From positions 4,055-68,054 of the forward strand of contig JBGUVX010000032.1 of NCBI GenBank assembly GCA_045220575.1: DNA of 64,000 nt, in the 5' to 3' direction. The first letter of the stretch is position 1, and each line of letters begins with the position of its first letter. Shown one piece after another: positions 16,006-51,928 of this stretch. The stretch is from Bacteroidaceae bacterium (GTDB lineage: Bacteria; Bacteroidota; Bacteroidia; Bacteroidales; Bacteroidaceae). The position numbers and the translations under genes were made by a program. The notes beneath the pieces are model-generated. The model worked only from the letters and a program-made list of their open reading frames with translations, was not told the DNA's origin and did not search any database.

Positions 16006-16013
16006 TAACTTTG
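16006..16013 (+). promoter_or_regulatory. -7 box TAACTTTG for the ATP-grasp-like operon
   Basis: Perfect TAnnTTTG, 8 nt before the ATG at 16022, which implies a very short or absent leader. Confidence 0.5.
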
Positions 16014-16021
16014 TGCTCGTT

Positions 16022-17020
16022 ATGTTACCTGCACTGTTCAATCCGTCGAACGACATGGCTCTGGCAGCAAACGTGCGCCAGTACTTTCCGCCACAACGCA
16101 TCCAGCAGATGGAGGACGACCTTGCCGACCTTTCACGATTCTGGGATTCAGGTCCTTGGGGATGGAGCTTAGCCACGAAGCAGCGCTATCACCGCATGGG
16201 CGTTCCTGCCGACCAGTTGCCAAGCGACGAATGGCTCGCCGAGGTGCGACGGCTGTCGAGTCGAGAGTTCGGGGTAGCATATTATCAGAAGTTGACCCCC
16301 CTCTTATCCCCCCATGATGGAGGAAGAAATCCCTTATTACCTAGTCAAGTACAATACATCAAATCCATTCCGCAGGAACTTTTTCTCTCCCCATTATGGG
16401 GGAGCAGGAGGGGGCTCATTATTAAAGCTCCCTGGTCGAGCAGCGGGCGAGGGAATATTATTATCGGCAAAGAAATTGCCGACCACGCTACATTGCAGCA
16501 CATTGAGCGAATCATACGCGAGCAGGGAGGAATAGTTGTGGAGCCGTACTATGACAATAAGGCACTGGACTTCGCGACGGAATTCGAAGTCACCGATGAC
16601 GGTACGGAATTTGTAGGGTATAGCGTATTTTATGCCGATGAAACGGGGCATTATGGTGGTAACTTAGTAAAGAGTCAGGCTGAACTACTTTCTATTATCG
16701 ACTTGCCACAGCCGCTGCTTGACGAACTCATTGCATTTCATCGTCGAGAGCTTGGCAAATTAGCATATCGCGGTCCCGTGGGAATAGACATGATGCGACT
16801 TCGCGACGGTCGAGTGCATCCTTGCGTGGAAGTGAATTTCCGCATGACCATGGGACTGTTGGCCATCCTCCTCCATCGGCAGGGTATAACCGACGACCAA
16901 CTTCTGGCCGGCCATCCCGACCAAGGATTCTCAGCCTCCATCAAACAGGGAATCCTCGTTATCGACTATAAACCATTATCGAAAAAGCAACTCCAAGAAG
17001 AACTAAACAAAAGAAAATGA
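16022..17020 (+). CDS. ATP-grasp-like hypothetical protein carrying an in-frame palindromic insertion
   Basis: The track start at 16013 is GTG and lies inside the -7 box; the ATG is at 16022. ATP-grasp-like blocks are KAPWSSSGRGNIII, IVVEPYY and GPVGIDMM...CVEVNFRMTMG. Residues LSPHDGGRN...LSPLWGSRRG are encoded by the 16295-16416 palindrome pair. Confidence 0.6.
   Translation: MLPALFNPSNDMALAANVRQYFPPQRIQQMEDDLADLSRFWDSGPWGWSLATKQRYHRMGVPADQLPSDEWLAEVRRLSSREFGVAYYQKLTPLLSPHDGGRNPLLPSQVQYIKSIPQELFLSPLWGSRRGLIIKAPWSSSGRGNIIIGKEIADHATLQHIERIIREQGGIVVEPYYDNKALDFATEFEVTDDGTEFVGYSVFYADETGHYGGNLVKSQAELLSIIDLPQPLLDELIAFHRRELGKLAYRGPVGIDMMRLRDGRVHPCVEVNFRMTMGLLAILLHRQGITDDQLLAGHPDQGFSASIKQGILVIDYKPLSKKQLQEELNKRK
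16295..16416. repeat. Cargo-less C-run/G-run palindrome pair embedded in frame in a CDS
   Basis: CCCCCCATGATGGAGG (16308-16323) and the perfect 17-bp palindrome CTCCCCATTATGGGGAG (16387-16403), followed by CAGGAGGGGGCT. Same end motifs and same order as the birA cassette. Confidence 0.7.
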
Positions 17021-47412: not shown

Positions 47413-48284
47413 TAACCGTAAAGCTCCTTTTCGCGCATGGAGAGGAAGTGGCTGACGCTGATGAAGGTGCAGAGCAGCGTCAAAAGCAATCCGCAGCCCA
47501 AGACTGCCAAAGCCGTAATGATGACATTCTCCTGCGTAACATAGGCCTGCATAACAGGGTCGTAGTTCCACAGCGCACGGATGCCTCCGAGCAAGACGGC
47601 ATCGGCCAACACGCTTGCAGCCAGTCCTATCCACAAGGCACGCAGCATGAAGGGACGTCGGATGAATCCCCAACTGGCACCCACGAGCTTCATGGTGTGT
47701 ATGATGAAGCGACGCGAATAGACCGACAGGCGCACGGTATTGTTGATGAGCACCAGCGTAACGAGCAACAGCAGAATCGCAATGCCCAGCAGTACGTAGG
47801 TCACTTTACGCAGGTTGCTGTTCAGTCGCTCTATCAGTTCCTTCTGGTATATGACGTCCGTCACCAGTTTGTTGCTCTTCAGGCGCTTGCTTATCCACAG
47901 CAGGCTGTCGGTGCAGGCATAGTCAGCTACGAGGTACAGTTCCAGCGAGGGGGTGAAAGGGTTCACTCCTCCCAGGAAGTCTGTTGGATCGGTGCCCAAG
48001 GCTTCGGTCTGCTCTTCGAGAGCCTGTTCGCGGCTGATGAAGGTGATGTCCTTCACCCAGGGACGTTTCTCAAGCTTTGCCTTGTAGTCGAGCGCATCCT
48101 GATTCGAGGCGTCGTCGCCCATCATCACCATGACGGTCAGGCTTTCCCTCACACTCTCGCTCAACTGTCGGGCGGTGAGGGCACAAATGACAACCAGCCC
48201 CATCAGTATGAGCACAAAGGTCGTACTGATGGTGCTGGTGAGGGCCTGCCAACGCAGGGATATCTTCTTTCTTTTTCTTGGCAT
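47412..48284 (-). CDS. ftsX: FtsX-like cell-division permease
   Basis: 290 aa with 4 TM helices and a periplasmic loop; FtsX topology. Confidence 0.8.
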   Translation of the reverse strand: MPRKRKKISLRWQALTSTISTTFVLILMGLVVICALTARQLSESVRESLTVMVMMGDDASNQDALDYKAKLEKRPWVKDITFISREQALEEQTEALGTDPTDFLGGVNPFTPSLELYLVADYACTDSLLWISKRLKSNKLVTDVIYQKELIERLNSNLRKVTYVLLGIAILLLLVTLVLINNTVRLSVYSRRFIIHTMKLVGASWGFIRRPFMLRALWIGLAASVLADAVLLGGIRALWNYDPVMQAYVTQENVIITALAVLGCGLLLTLLCTFISVSHFLSMREKELYG

Positions 48285-48291
48285 TACACAG

Positions 48292-48326
48292 CGCTTAGTT
48301 CTTCACTTCTATTTCTTAATCCTTCA
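48292..48326. repeat. Heptamer tract (CTT words)
   Basis: CGCTTAG TTCTTCA CTTCTAT TTCTTAA TCCTTCA. It overlaps the stop of the CoA-transferase gene. Confidence 0.65.
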
Positions 48327-49830
48327 AATACTCAGCCCAGTCGGTCAAGCGCATATCACCTTTGCGCAGGAAGGTATCGTGCATGGCAAAGGCAGCGCTG
48401 AGGCAGTGGTGAGTGTGACCACCCGTCTTCTCGGCATACTTCAGGTAGTCCATCAGCATGGGGCGATAGTCGGGATGAGCCACCTTGATGAGTTCGAGGC
48501 TCTTCTGCATGTCGCTCTTGTGACGCAGGTCAGCCACGCCGTATTCCGTAATCACGGCATTGACAAAGTGGTTGGTGTGGTCGATGTGGCTGGCGAAGGG
48601 CACGATGCTCGAAATGGCACCACCCTTGGTGGTAGAGCCGCAGGTGAAGATAGAGAGGTAGGCATTATTCGTGAAGTCGGCGCTTCCACCGATGCCGTTC
48701 ATCATCTTCGTACCGCAAATCTTGGTGGAGTTGACGTGTCCATAGAGGTCAACCTCGATAGCAGTGTTCAGCGAGCAAACGCCGATGCGTGCAATGACTT
48801 CGGGATTGTTGGAGATTTCGGAGGGACGCAGCACCAGCTTGTCCTTAAAGAAGTCCATATCACGATAGATGCCCTTCATGCACTCGTTTGTGACGGTGAG
48901 CGAGCAGGCAGAGGCAGAGAGCACGCGGCCCTCGCGCATCAATTCGATGGGAGCATCCTGCAGCACCTCGGTGTAGATGTTGAAGTTGGGCACCTCGGGG
49001 CACTGTCCCAGTGCGCCCAGCACGGCGTTTGCACCACTGCCCACACCGCTCTGCAGGTTCAGGAATGTGGGAGGAATCTTGCCTGCCTTCATGTTTGCCA
49101 GCAGGAAGTCGGCTACGTTCTGACCAATCTGTGTGGTGATGGGGTCGGCATCCTTGAACGAACGGGCCTCATCGGGGATATTGCCCTCTACAACGCCTAC
49201 GATGCGGTCGGCATCCACCTCGATATAGGGTTTACCGATGCGGTCGCTGGGCTTCATAATCATGATGGGCTTACGGTAGGGATGGTCCTCTATCTCGTAA
49301 ACGTCGTGAATGCCCATTCCGCTACGCTCGTGGAAGGCGTTCAGCTCGATGATGATGCCCTCGGTGGCCAGTCGGCAGACAGTGGGGGCGATACCGCCGG
49401 CAGCAGTCAGGTAGATGTGTGCCTTGTTGCCAACCTTCTCGATAGCGCAAGCCTCGATAATAGCCCAGTTGACAGGGCCAAGATAGCCTTGGCGAATCTG
49501 CGTGGCCATGTTCGAGAGGTTCAGGTCGCTATAGTTCAGCTCGTTCAGGTTCACGTGTTTACGGAAGTCAGGGTTCGTAGTGTAGGGGGCGCGGAAGTCG
49601 ATTGCCTGTGCGTTCGACATAGCACCGTCGCAGCTCTGACCCGTAGAGGCTCCCGTAAAGATGTTTACCTTGTAGGGGCGTCCGGCAGCATGTTCTGCCT
49701 CTGCCAGCTTAGCAATCTCGGCAGTAGTCATCTTGGCTGTGCCGGCAGGTGTGAATCCACTCAATCCGATGGTCTGACCATTCTTTACCAACGCTGCAGC
49801 TTCGGCAGCGGTAATTTTATTGAAATCCAT
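48316..49830 (-). CDS. Acetyl-CoA hydrolase/transferase family protein (succinate/acetate CoA-transferase type)
   Basis: 504 aa. GLSGFTPAG, SGVGSGANAVL, and the EVDLYGHVNST...NGIGGSADF blocks. Confidence 0.88.
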   Translation of the reverse strand: MDFNKITAAEAAALVKNGQTIGLSGFTPAGTAKMTTAEIAKLAEAEHAAGRPYKVNIFTGASTGQSCDGAMSNAQAIDFRAPYTTNPDFRKHVNLNELNYSDLNLSNMATQIRQGYLGPVNWAIIEACAIEKVGNKAHIYLTAAGGIAPTVCRLATEGIIIELNAFHERSGMGIHDVYEIEDHPYRKPIMIMKPSDRIGKPYIEVDADRIVGVVEGNIPDEARSFKDADPITTQIGQNVADFLLANMKAGKIPPTFLNLQSGVGSGANAVLGALGQCPEVPNFNIYTEVLQDAPIELMREGRVLSASACSLTVTNECMKGIYRDMDFFKDKLVLRPSEISNNPEVIARIGVCSLNTAIEVDLYGHVNSTKICGTKMMNGIGGSADFTNNAYLSIFTCGSTTKGGAISSIVPFASHIDHTNHFVNAVITEYGVADLRHKSDMQKSLELIKVAHPDYRPMLMDYLKYAEKTGGHTHHCLSAAFAMHDTFLRKGDMRLTDWAEYLKD

Positions 49831-49863
49831 ATTGTTTTAGTTTTGATTTTGGTTTAGCGCGTG

Positions 49864-49924: not shown

Positions 49925-50635
49925 TCAATTATGCACGAGCGTACCTATTTCCTCGCCTGCCATCACCTTCTTCAGGTTGCCGACGATGTCCATGTTGAAG
50001 ACGTAGATGGGCAGGTCGTTCATCTTACACATGGTAGTGGCTGTCAGGTCCATCACCTTCAGACCGCGGTTGTAAATTTCGTCGTAGGTGATTTCCTTGA
50101 ACTTCGTAGCCGTGGGGTCTTTCTCCGGGTCGGCGGTATAAACGCCATCTACACGTGTTCCCTTCAGCATCACGTCGGCCTCAATCTCTATGCCGCGAAG
50201 CGAAGAGCCCGTGTCGGTAGTGAAGTAGGGATTGCCTGTCCCGCCACTCATGATGACCACCTCGCCGCGCTCCATTGCCTCGATGGCCTTCCATTTAGTG
50301 TACAGCTCGCCGATGGGTTCCATGCGGATAGCCGTCAGCACCGTCGTCTTTTGTCCGATGGCTTGCAGGGCACTGCACAGGCCCAGCGAGTTGATGACGG
50401 TTGCCAGCATTCCCATCTGGTCGCCCCTGACGCGGTCGAAGCCCTTGCCGGCTCCAGTCAGACCGCGGAAGATGTTTCCGCCTCCGATGACGATTCCCAC
50501 CTGGACACCCATGTCCACTACTTCCTTAATCTGACGTGCATAGTCGTTCAGACGGTTCACGTCGATGCCATAACCCTGTTCTCCCTGCAGGCTCTCGCCC
50601 GAGAGCTTCAGCAGAATTCTCTTAAACTTTGCCAT
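49925..50635 (-). CDS. pyrH: UMP kinase
   Basis: 236 aa. RILLKLSGE, VIGGGNIFRG, TGNPYFTTD. Confidence 0.96.
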   Translation of the reverse strand: MAKFKRILLKLSGESLQGEQGYGIDVNRLNDYARQIKEVVDMGVQVGIVIGGGNIFRGLTGAGKGFDRVRGDQMGMLATVINSLGLCSALQAIGQKTTVLTAIRMEPIGELYTKWKAIEAMERGEVVIMSGGTGNPYFTTDTGSSLRGIEIEADVMLKGTRVDGVYTADPEKDPTATKFKEITYDEIYNRGLKVMDLTATTMCKMNDLPIYVFNMDIVGNLKKVMAGEEIGTLVHN

Positions 50636-50677
50636 AATATCTTAATTCTTAACTCTTAATTTTTAATTCTTAATTTG
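50636..50677. repeat. Heptamer tract (TAATTCT words), inverted relative to 49876-49920
   Basis: AATATCT TAATTCT TAACTCT TAATTTT TAATTCT TAATTTG. It encodes the birA C-terminal KLRIKN plus stop, and the whole birA-pyrH spacer. Confidence 0.85.
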
Positions 50678-51891
50678 TATTCCACTTCCTTAAAGCCATA
50701 GCTTCGTTTTCTGCCCGTTTCATCGACAATTATCAGGTGCCCCGCAGGCTCCACATCCACGATGGTGCCCACGAACTCCCCATCCTTGTCGCGAAACGTA
50801 TGCTTCTCGCCGCGACGATAGAGTTGATCGAGGTACATCTCGTGCAGTTCGTCCAACCGCCCCTGTTCCGTCCACTCGTAGTAGTGGGTAAAGTTCTCCA
50901 CCACCCTTTCAAGGACGAAGCGACGTTCCACCTCCTCGCCCACAATCTGTACCAACGACACAGGTTCTGCCATTCGTCGCAGGCCGTCCTGTTGGGTTCT
51001 GTCGAATGTGAACTCCGTCTGGTTAATGTTGATGCCCACGCCCATCACCGAGCGCTCTATCCTGTCGCCCCTCAGTTCGTTCTCGATGAGCATTCCACAT
51101 ATCTTCCTGTCGCCCCAATAAATATCGTTGGGCCACTTGATTTGAAGCCCCCCACCATCTCCCCCCATAATGGGGGAGGGTTGCAAAGCCACTTGAAGAG
51201 TACGACACACGTTTTGTGTATTACCAATTATTTCTTCGTTCGTGAAACGTATAACTCTGAACCCCATACGTTGTAGCGAGGCTGTTCTATCGGCATCACA
51301 TTCCTTTTGCTCCGAGTGTTTATGGTAGCCACCATCTATTTCAACTATCAAGTTGTGCTGAAGGCATACGAAATCAACTATATAGTCTCCAATAATATGT
51401 TGTCTTCTGAAGGAAACCCCCAGATTTTTATTTTTTAATATTTCCCACATAGCATTCTCTGCCTCTGTGGGATATTGTCTGTTTTCTTTTGCGAATTCCT
51501 TCAGCAGTTTGTATCTGTCTGGCGAGGCTGTCTTATAGGCATCACGTCCATTACTGCGGGCAAAGTCCCCCCTCATGGGGGGATTTAGGGAGGCCTGGAT
51601 GGCGAGGGAAAGGACCTCGCTGAGGACGAACATGCGGTCGGCAGGGATGTGGCGAGGGTGCAGGAGCAAGCTGAACAGCAGGTTCTGCCCAGGCTGCGAC
51701 TCCCACCGGTTGCTGCCCGCCCCGCGACCAGCCGTCTGGTATTCCGCCGTCACCAGCGTCAAGCGTCGCTCCGGCCCCACAGGGCGGTAGTTGCGCAGGA
51801 AGTCGTTCGTGCTCGTCACCTCCCCCAGCTCCACCATACGGAACTCGGGCGAGTCGTCCAGACAAAAATGTCTATCCAATTTATAGTCCAT
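50656..51891 (-). CDS. birA: Biotin--[acetyl-CoA-carboxylase] ligase interrupted in frame by a ~145-aa DUF559 endonuclease cassette
   Basis: Starts at the ATG at 51891 (MDYKL), downstream of the -7 box at 51929-51936. BirA blocks are TAEYQTAGRGAGSNRWES and, after the insert, IKWPNDIYWGDRKICGMLIE, GVGININ. One uninterrupted reading frame runs through the insert. Confidence 0.85.
   Translation of the reverse strand: MDYKLDRHFCLDDSPEFRMVELGEVTSTNDFLRNYRPVGPERRLTLVTAEYQTAGRGAGSNRWESQPGQNLLFSLLLHPRHIPADRMFVLSEVLSLAIQASLNPPMRGDFARSNGRDAYKTASPDRYKLLKEFAKENRQYPTEAENAMWEILKNKNLGVSFRRQHIIGDYIVDFVCLQHNLIVEIDGGYHKHSEQKECDADRTASLQRMGFRVIRFTNEEIIGNTQNVCRTLQVALQPSPIMGGDGGGLQIKWPNDIYWGDRKICGMLIENELRGDRIERSVMGVGININQTEFTFDRTQQDGLRRMAEPVSLVQIVGEEVERRFVLERVVENFTHYYEWTEQGRLDELHEMYLDQLYRRGEKHTFRDKDGEFVGTIVDVEPAGHLIIVDETGRKRSYGFKEVEYKLRIKN
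51147..51593 (-). mobile_element. Palindrome-bounded DUF559 (Vsr-like PD-(D/E)xK endonuclease) cassette inserted in frame in birA
   Basis: The encoded segment PPMRGD...YPTEAENAMWEILKNKNLGVSFRRQHIIGDYIVDFVCLQHNLIVEIDGGYH...RMGFRVIRFTNEEI...SPIMGGDGGGLQ matches DUF559 as I recall it. Its boundaries are CCCCCCTCATGGGGGG (51567-51582) and CCCCCATAATGGGGG (51162-51176). The interior is visibly AT-rich compared with birA. Confidence 0.75.
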
Positions 51892-51928
51892 AACCTGATG
51901 GCAACGCGATGCCGATATCAAAACCACA

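Follow-up and report, generated by a model that had tools for sequence, protein, structure and literature searches.

The prevailing view is that selfish nuclease genes reach essential genes solely in the company of a self-splicing intron or an intein, and that they otherwise lie between genes. The Rickettsia palindromic elements (RPEs), reportedly described by Ogata and colleagues in 2000, are enzyme-free elements of 100-150 bp with no known mobilising activity. Repetitive extragenic palindromic sequences (REPs) are extragenic by definition, and the REP-associated tyrosine transposases (RAYTs) are single-strand transposases of the HUH/Y1 kind. In this study we analyzed a 64-kb stretch of DNA from a Bacteroidaceae bacterium, referred to hereafter as the window, in which the biotin-protein ligase gene birA is interrupted in frame by a DUF559 nuclease gene bounded by inverted hairpin repeats. 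We consider it likely that the insert is a selfish, homing-like nuclease cassette that is tolerated as a domain insertion in a surface loop of BirA.

Vsr-like EDxHD homing endonuclease genes sit in introns or in 'fractured genes' (PMC2677866, PMC3239194), and hairpins upstream of EDxHD nuclease open reading frames (ORFs) were reported by Dassa et al. 2009 (PMC2677866). I-Bth0305I acts as a homodimer and cleaves a 14-bp pseudopalindrome at its centre (PMC3239194, Taylor et al. 2011), and Steczkiewicz et al. 2012 (PMC3424549) grouped the I-Bth0305I family, Vsr and DUF559 in one PD-(D/E)xK clade. The birA element fails one defining feature of each of the nearest known systems, and the cassette family is new so far as our literature search shows. 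No published description of such cassettes was found in the full-text literature searched, which covers few subscription journals, so that a prior description is possible.

On the minus strand of the window, a frame without a stop extends across 423 codons (50656..51927). The ATG at 51891 is the likely start of birA and yields a protein of 411 amino acids (aa), followed by TAA, that is identical to database protein P0001. The biotin-protein ligase profile TIGR00121 (birA_ligase) was matched with 138.1 bits, relative to a cut-off of 83.1, in two stretches that flank the insert, and the BPL_LplA_LipB match in Pfam was likewise split in two by DUF559. The ligase motifs GRGAGSN (residue 55) and KWPND (residue 252) are kept, and the protein is of the group I type, which is without the N-terminal repressor domain.

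The segment between the two ligase parts is a nuclease domain. Residues 142-248 matched Pfam DUF559 (PF04480) over profile positions 3-108 of 109, with an E value of 1e-32 and 112.7 bits (cut-off 20.6), and the NF007294 profile was also matched by the fusion. The solved DUF559 protein PDB 3HRL was matched by phmmer (E=2.4e-18, 40% identity). When the AlphaFold2 (AF2) model was compared with solved structures by Foldseek, the target template-modelling (TM) scores were 0.86 for 3HRL (root-mean-square deviation 2.5), 0.78 for I-Bth0305I (E=3e-5) and 0.52 for Vsr. Sequence identity to I-Bth0305I is 22%, and the insert is without an extra domain. A weak match (E=2.4e-5) to 'HEase' was returned by PADLOC.

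Residues D173, E184, D186 and H190 (411-aa numbering) lie in columns that are invariant over 50 relatives and 44 embedded copies of the domain, and by analogy with the fold family they are the putative catalytic residues. Over the 44 embedded copies, which are found in unrelated hosts, 17 DUF559 residues are invariant, including the D, the E-x-D and the H. Between the window and L001, a second birA allele that carries the cassette, the proportions of differing nonsynonymous and synonymous sites in the insert (pN and pS) were 0.16 and 0.67, respectively, and the ratio of the corresponding rates (dN/dS) was about 0.11, a constraint like that on BirA itself (0.17 in its N part). Purifying selection acts on the nuclease domain, and these comparisons suggest that the domain is kept functional.

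The composition of the insert is foreign to its host gene. The GC content was 0.41-0.44 and the GC content at third codon positions (GC3) 0.42 in the insert, compared to 0.56 and 0.75, respectively, in the rest of birA. The same bias was present at all loci scored, where DUF559 was AT-richer than its flanks in 17 of 17 embedded and 45 of 45 free-standing cases. The original prediction, made from the sequence of this region, had read here an uninterrupted birA frame of 411-423 codons, a DUF559 segment, an insert that is AT-rich relative to its host, and no intein signature; each of these readings held up, the last in that the birA product has no match to a Hint/intein domain in Pfam.

The ends of the element (Table 1) are those common to L001 and to a copy in a MiaB gene of another rumen genome (L009). 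The stretch without homology to L002, a birA allele that lacks the cassette, is 51142..51595, and the element peptide reads ASLNPPMRGD...DUF559...SPIMGGDGGG. Two C-run/G-run palindromes had been predicted to bracket the insert. Both are present at the predicted positions, but they are not simple brackets: each is the core of a terminal inverted repeat that is at least 26 bp long, with the cassette at the dyad of a palindrome that existed beforehand or was left behind, and the element is larger than the segment between them because it also takes in an outer C-run and an outer G-run. The in-frame ATG of the first palindrome (CCC CCC ATG AGG GGG GAC) is also present, but independent translation of the nuclease from it, which had been proposed as well, is unsupported; the ATG occurs in L001 and is replaced by GTA in the MiaB copy.

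Table 1. Features of the birA cassette and of the solo hairpin units in the window.
Feature	Coordinates	Strand	Remarks
birA coding sequence	50656..51891	-	open frame, ATG/TAA checked; cassette interrupts in frame
BirA N-terminal part, residues 1-99	51595..51891	-	98.3% DNA identity to insert-free L002
Complete inserted element, 447 bp = 149 codons, no stop	51148..51594	-	ends common to L009 (MiaB) and L001 (birA)
Left outer end GCCTCCCTAAA, outer C-run and spacer of left inverted repeat	51584..51594	-	
Hairpin 1 TCCCCCCATGAGGGGGGA (palindrome CCCCCCTCATGGGGGG at 51567-51582)	51566..51583	-	codes PPMRG, in-frame ATG
DUF559 / Vsr-like PD-(D/E)xK domain	51184..51504	-	Pfam, PDB 3HRL, Foldseek, invariant columns
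Hairpin 2 TCCCCCATTATGGGGGGA (palindrome CCCCCCATAATGGGGG at 51161-51176)	51160..51177	-	codes SPIMGG
Right outer end GATGGTGGGGGG, spacer and outer G-run	51148..51159	-	codes DGGG
BirA C-terminal part, LQIKWPNDIY to stop	50656..51147	-	94.5% identity to L002
Two solo hairpin units: TCCCCCATAATGGGGAGA at 16386-16403; TCCTCCATCATGGGGGGA at 16307-16324, then TAAGAGGGGGG	16307..16403	-	each in ORF 16013..17020(+)

Apart from 2 mismatches in the window, and 1-2 over the filled alleles, the sequence of hairpin 2 is the reverse complement of that of hairpin 1. The pattern C5-N2-8-G5 was matched four times in overlapping positions, all at the two birA hairpins, relative to an expectation of 0.30 in 64 kb, and none of 100 shuffled sequences reached four matches. 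The hairpins do not form a terminator-like site. The junctions, ...QASLNPPM... on one side and ...GGDGGG followed by LQIKW on the other, lack the Cys/Ser/Thr and His-Asn residues of inteins. No intron family in Rfam 15 was matched at E values up to 5, and the frame is open throughout. Terminal inverted repeats like those of transposons are present, DUF559 is the sole Pfam domain of the element, and no recognised transposase was found in it. The duplicated hairpin is ambiguous, as it could be a target-site duplication or the ends of the element.

A sub-threshold Rfam match to whalefall-1 (RF01762) was seen over hairpin 1 (window 51563-51615, plus strand) at 22.8 bits, compared to a gathering score of 37 that was reached by no locus scanned. 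The consensus stem of whalefall-1, UCuCuCC-UuGG-GGaGaGA, resembles the C/T-run plus G/A-run class of palindromes, and this 'RNA motif' may be a DNA repeat of the birA-hairpin kind.

The cassette is an insertion and not an ancestral domain, as the original prediction had held. DUF559 is present in P0001, P0002 and the fragment P0007, and it is missing from the other 117 of the 120 best BirA clusters. In the orthologues with both motifs (48 of the 120 best clusters), the loop from HPR to KWPND measures 28-75 residues; in the two filled alleles it measures 171-175 residues. The allele of P0003/L002 lacks the cassette and is otherwise nearly the same as that of the window (identities in Table 1), with 0-1 mismatches per 50 nt in the N part, 1-4 in the C part and 0-1 in pyrH. 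The part of birA downstream of the cassette diverges more from L002 than does the upstream part or the neighbouring pyrH, which suggests that a recombined or imported tract, which on this comparison could have run in either direction, passes through the birA loop.

A second lineage showed the same polymorphism in its simplest form. The sole difference between the filled allele L001 and the empty alleles L091 (96-97% identity) and L089 is the cassette itself, and the sample of L091 has an ENA accession neighbouring that of L001. The empty sites read GCCCCCC-TAAA-TCCCCCCAT(T/G)ATGGGGGGA-GATGGA-GGGGGG, with a loop T in L089 and a loop G in L091. Their core is a perfect 19-bp palindrome (TCCCCCCATNATGGGGGGA) nested between an outer C6 run and an outer G6 run. 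The filled allele reads GCCCCCC-TAAA-TCCCCCCATGATGGGGGA...DUF559...TCCCCCATTATGGGGGGA-GATGGA-GGGGGG, with six C or G in the outer arms and five in the inner arms. Comparison of the two sequences therefore positions the cassette at the dyad of the palindrome. Because the MiaB copy has identical outer ends, the outer runs are part of the element, and the 'empty' birA sites with one palindrome are therefore solo forms of the element; the truly naive birA loops would be those of orthologues such as P0010 or P0054. Presence and absence at one precise site among close relatives is the polymorphism expected of a homing element.

The host protein appears to accommodate the insert. The insertion lies in the loop that connects the helix ending in ...LSLAIQAS to the strand IKWPNDIY. 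In the AF2 model of the whole protein, the predicted local distance difference test (pLDDT) score was above 90 in both BirA parts and 70-88 in the nuclease, and it fell below 50 at residues 106-116 and 239-245, which are the hairpin-encoded peptides. Foldseek matched the model to solved biotin ligases across the insertion (for example 2e41, target TM 0.83). Consistent with the check by structural modelling that had been suggested for a surface-loop position, the model predicts an intact ligase fold with the insertion in a permissive loop, the nuclease being held on two disordered Pro/Gly linkers. Proline, glycine and serine together made up 37-41% of the junction peptides at 17 embedded loci, compared to 17% in the hosts. 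Because C-run/G-run palindromes read as Pro...Gly, the repeats would double as code for linkers.

Cassettes of this type are found in many other genes. A genome scan with the 146-aa insert as the query returned 80 loci, mostly from rumen Prevotella/Bacteroidaceae but also from Aequorivita, Flavobacterium, Paludibacter and Muribaculum. A C-rich/G-rich hairpin was present on both sides of DUF559 in almost all of these loci, whether embedded or free-standing. The hairpin regions (26-27 nt) were inverted at 49 of the 59 scorable loci, direct at 5 and tied at 5, where a pair was scored as inverted if the downstream region was nearer to the reverse complement of the upstream region than to the upstream region itself. 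Several loci had inverted repeats with 0-2 mismatches, and the sequence of the repeat varied between DUF559 subfamilies. Judged from these alignments, the hairpins that flank DUF559 appear generally to be the cores of terminal inverted repeats of 26 bp or more. At 30 loci, DUF559 lay in a stop-free frame that reached 100 aa or more beyond it on at least one side, and at 17 of these it did so on both. The hosts of the embedded loci, assigned by Pfam, were MiaB, RecG, ValS, LeuS, GH31, WecB, ABC-F, CapD-like and epimerase proteins.

A less biased census, in which a core profile was run against 1.84 billion representatives, yielded 45,078 DUF559 family clusters. Embedded copies, with more than 60 aa of protein on each side, accounted for 45 (about 30%) of the best 150 family clusters. 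In the 44 of these that were scanned, 66 Pfam families were matched in all, DUF559 included, among them GT2 glycosyltransferases, MetH and chorismate synthase. The MiaB copy L009 is in frame, belongs to the same subfamily as the birA cassettes and has the ends GCCCCCCTAAATCCCCCC...GGGGGGAGAYGGAGGGGGG; core identity was 75% between L009 and the birA copy of L001, 74% between the window and L001, and 73% between the window and L009. The same-ended cassette in MiaB and the related cassettes in dozens of unrelated proteins bear out the selfish-element reading and the analogy to RPEs drawn in the original prediction. That prediction knew of no comparable case in a biotin ligase, and we found none published, but the birA insertion is not a one-off; it is a member of a large family.

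Annotation may obscure such copies. The short protein P0146 (203 aa; loci L010, L065 and L082) was called from an internal ATG and described as 'DUF559 plus Polysacc_synt_C', and in the DNA behind it the nuclease is in frame within a full-length NAD-epimerase/polysaccharide-synthesis protein. From calls of this type it follows that embedded cassettes are partly hidden by annotation, in which the proteins appear as odd two-domain fusions or are split at internal ATGs.

Hairpins of the same family also occur alone. Four repeat-family matches were found in the window, compared to 0.06 expected by chance. Two solo units in ORF 16013..17020 (Table 1) are in frame in separate variable loops and read TPLLSPHDGG and SPLWGSRRG. 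The product is a conserved protein without a Pfam domain; some of its orthologues have solo units, some have none, and some have other repeats at these places. The possibility that 16307-16403 is a miniature cassette minus its nuclease was rejected, as the intervening 61 bp are conserved host sequence (LLPCQARF...) in an alignment of 19 orthologues.

An exact 17-mer from the left end of the element, CCCCCCTAAATCCCCCC, was present in at least 120 metagenome contigs, and in at least 49 matches it continued as a hairpin plus GGGGGGACTT(T), in the exact form GCCCCCCTAAATCCCCCC-loop-GGGGGGACTTT. Among the matches listed, a DUF559 gene adjoined the 17-mer in 9 of 120 contigs, and of 35 hairpin-type matches separated from the contig end by 200 nt or more, 11 lay inside long reading frames. 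The motif GCCCCCCTAAA-TCCCCCC-loop-GGGGGGA-CTTT was seen on many metagenome contigs from different projects (L093-L212), with conserved stem and flanks and a variable loop, and from its distribution the repeat family appears to extend beyond the rumen bacteria to which the window belongs. Paired repeat units without DUF559 between them, inverted or direct and spaced by up to a few hundred bp, were observed on L144 (494-602), L176, L195 (2565 and 674) and L168 (379 and 574). These pairs may be REPIN-like doublets or cassettes from which the gene was lost.

Our results suggest a model in which the selfish unit is the DUF559 nuclease gene together with its terminal inverted repeats, each made of a C-run/G-run hairpin and an outer C- or G-run. 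Because the nuclease frame crosses both repeats and has no start or stop of its own, the cassette would be translated as part of BirA. The repeats would be read as flexible Pro/Ser...Gly linkers, allowing BirA to fold while the nuclease hangs off as an inserted domain. A dimeric nuclease, like its relative I-Bth0305I, might then recognise the cognate palindrome and cut it at or near the centre. Repair from a filled allele would copy the cassette into the dyad, from which it could be excised by recombination of the hairpins on its two sides, with one palindrome, the solo site, left in place. We suggest, tentatively, that some of the DUF559 nucleases drive a mobile element of a distinct kind in Bacteroidota, with repeats that would serve as a recognition and insertion site, as a dispersed REP-like repeat and as ready-made code for Pro/Gly linkers.

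Several observations weigh against a homing cassette. We know of no biochemical activity for the DUF559 proteins of this branch, and for this reason the target and the cleavage are guesses. The putative recognition site is not destroyed by the insertion, as both flanking hairpins stay near-palindromes, unlike the situation in classical homing. The 6/5 asymmetry of the arms might shield filled alleles, a suggestion drawn from very few cases, and the solo site L003 shows it too. Phage and plasmid collections yielded relatives below 48% identity, none of them of this subfamily, and gave no evidence of a vehicle. As the junction peptides formed part of the query, embedded copies are over-represented among the 80 loci. 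The ligase activity of the fusion is predicted, with indirect support from the dN/dS of the BirA N part, and the copy number of birA is that of the 64-kb window, which is the genome sequence considered for this organism. Lastly, the divergence of the insert between the two birA lineages (74-75% at the amino acid level) equals that of BirA (69-77%), and one old insertion followed by repeated precise losses would therefore fit as well. Movement is nevertheless favored by the unameliorated GC3 of the insert and by where the MiaB copy falls relative to those in birA, at least as far as sequence comparison goes.

If there was one ancient insertion into birA, in an ancestor of these Prevotella-like lineages, that is now immobile, is inherited vertically and is lost piecemeal by recombination between the hairpins, the polymorphism would reflect decay and not spread. 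The matching divergence of insert and host between the window and L001 is consistent with this, since synonymous sites are near saturation in both, and so are the solo palindromes, which are the expected products of deletion and of which both crossover types were found (loop G in L091 and loop T in L089). However, despite near-saturated synonymous sites the GC3 of the insert has not drifted to that of the host (0.42 versus 0.75; 0.34 versus 0.60), and the MiaB copy is as near to each birA copy as these are to one another. Strong purifying selection on the putative catalytic residues in 44 embedded copies would be hard to explain for a dead passenger, and an apparent recombination tract separates the window allele from L002, the C part being more diverged than the N part and pyrH. 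We therefore regard a single immobile insertion as unlikely. Possible, although somewhat doubtful, is an arrangement in which what moves or is targeted is the REP-like hairpin family, with DUF559 as its cognate enzyme just as RAYT is that of REP, so that the birA loop took up a solo repeat first and the nuclease later, and the nuclease serves the repeats or the host and not just itself. The cognate inverted hairpins that flank DUF559 differ in sequence among its subfamilies, solo units are many and those with a nuclease few (9 of 120 contigs, among the matches listed), in-frame solo units occur in another gene of the window, and one third of the solo units tested lie inside long frames, all of which favors this arrangement. 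PD-(D/E)xK nucleases, on the other hand, cut DNA and do not join it, so that a copy-out/paste-in process would need other factors. This arrangement overlaps largely with the selfish cassette that we favor, and the main difference between them is who benefits.

The remaining explanations fare much worse. An adaptive fusion, in which the nuclease fold gives BirA a new function such as DNA binding in place of the missing repressor domain, is very improbable. Group I ligases do lack an N-terminal DNA-binding domain and the inserted domain is under purifying selection, but it is missing from nearly all orthologues, even near-identical ones, the same cassette is found in proteins unlinked to biotin or DNA, and it always comes with its own inverted repeats and a foreign composition. 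We give equally little credence to removal of the insert before functional BirA is made, whether by an unrecognised intein, an intron or a translational bypass via the two hairpins. The hairpins could pair across the insert in the mRNA, and the gene is presumably essential. However, the Hint domain and the junction Cys/Ser/Thr or His-Asn residues of an intein are absent, Rfam recognised no intron at E values up to 5, and a frame kept open and under purifying selection over 149 codons, in birA as in dozens of other host genes, would be needless if it were skipped. An assembly or binning artefact on a chimeric contig is the least probable of all and can practically be dismissed. The window is probably derived from a metagenome-assembled genome (MAG), as its nearest relatives are rumen and gut MAGs, but four independent sources (NCBI, ENA, JGI and Logan) supplied at least 14 distinct sequences with the same filled allele, which is also found in the metagenome contig L136, and the frame is exact and the ends are precise.

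Two observations outside the cassette should be recorded. An AT-rich short repeat, AATTAAGAATTAAAAATTAAGAGTTAAGAATTAAG, makes up the final birA codons (KLRIKN) and the spacer to pyrH (window 50630-50680; also at about 610-665 in L002). Related repeats are read in frame within the same BirA loop of other orthologues, as QFSIYNFQF, ELRIKNEE and FTLHPSSF, and occur in loops of the ORF16013 family as well; together they look like a second in-frame repeat family of these genomes. A 575-aa ORF at window 48130-49857 is antisense to a 504-aa gene (48316..49830, minus strand) and is probably the usual open antisense frame of a GC3-rich gene and not a real gene.

The nuclease gene of the birA cassette appears to need neither intron nor intein; it is in frame, and its repeat ends would act as flexible linkers. 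If this is true, it would represent a third route, beside introns and inteins, into essential genes without killing the host. Were the mechanism to hold, it would provide a testable function for the very large DUF559 family (more than 45,000 clusters at 50% identity) and explain the Pro/Gly-rich, hairpin-encoded peptides that are scattered over Bacteroidota proteins. It would also mark naturally permissive loops in BirA, aminoacyl-tRNA synthetases, RecG and MiaB, and offer compact palindrome-specific nucleases for study.

Compared to the described systems, the birA cassette combines features that have been seen separately. NGO0050 of Neisseria gonorrhoeae (PDB 3HRL) and E. coli PRK09767 belong to the same DUF559 family by sequence; both are stand-alone proteins, and an embedded or repeat-flanked state is not described for them in the literature searched. 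The comparison with REP/RAYT systems ('REPtrons') draws in part on PMC5581495 and PMC3733652. As in those systems, one enzyme gene lies between inverted G+C-rich hairpin repeats that are also dispersed as solo units, and the repeat tracks the enzyme subfamily. Unlike them, the nuclease has a PD-(D/E)xK fold and not an HUH/Y1 fold, and the hairpins and cassettes are often in frame inside genes. The RPEs resemble the cassette in this last respect, as palindromic repeats are inserted in frame in unrelated genes, are tolerated because the added peptide is at the protein surface, and are dispersed over the genome. The cassette differs from them in that it carries a conserved nuclease gene, its short forms are hairpins of 18-42 bp, and its hosts are Bacteroidota. 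Homing-endonuclease inteins are likewise in-frame selfish inserts in essential genes that are translated with the host and spread, as the cassette could, through a nuclease. In contrast to these, the birA insert is without a protein-splicing domain or the corresponding junction residues and is expected to remain in the mature protein. Finally, the EDxHD enzymes (I-Bth0305I, PDB 3R3P) share the nuclease fold and also invade conserved housekeeping genes, and the cut that I-Bth0305I makes at the centre of its pseudopalindrome matches the position of the cassette at the palindrome dyad. Their genes are found in group I introns, between split inteins or as breaks in the host gene, and they are separate ORFs with extra DNA-binding domains, whereas the birA cassette consists of a minimal DUF559 domain of about 110 aa that is translated in frame, without a break, and probably persists in the mature protein.

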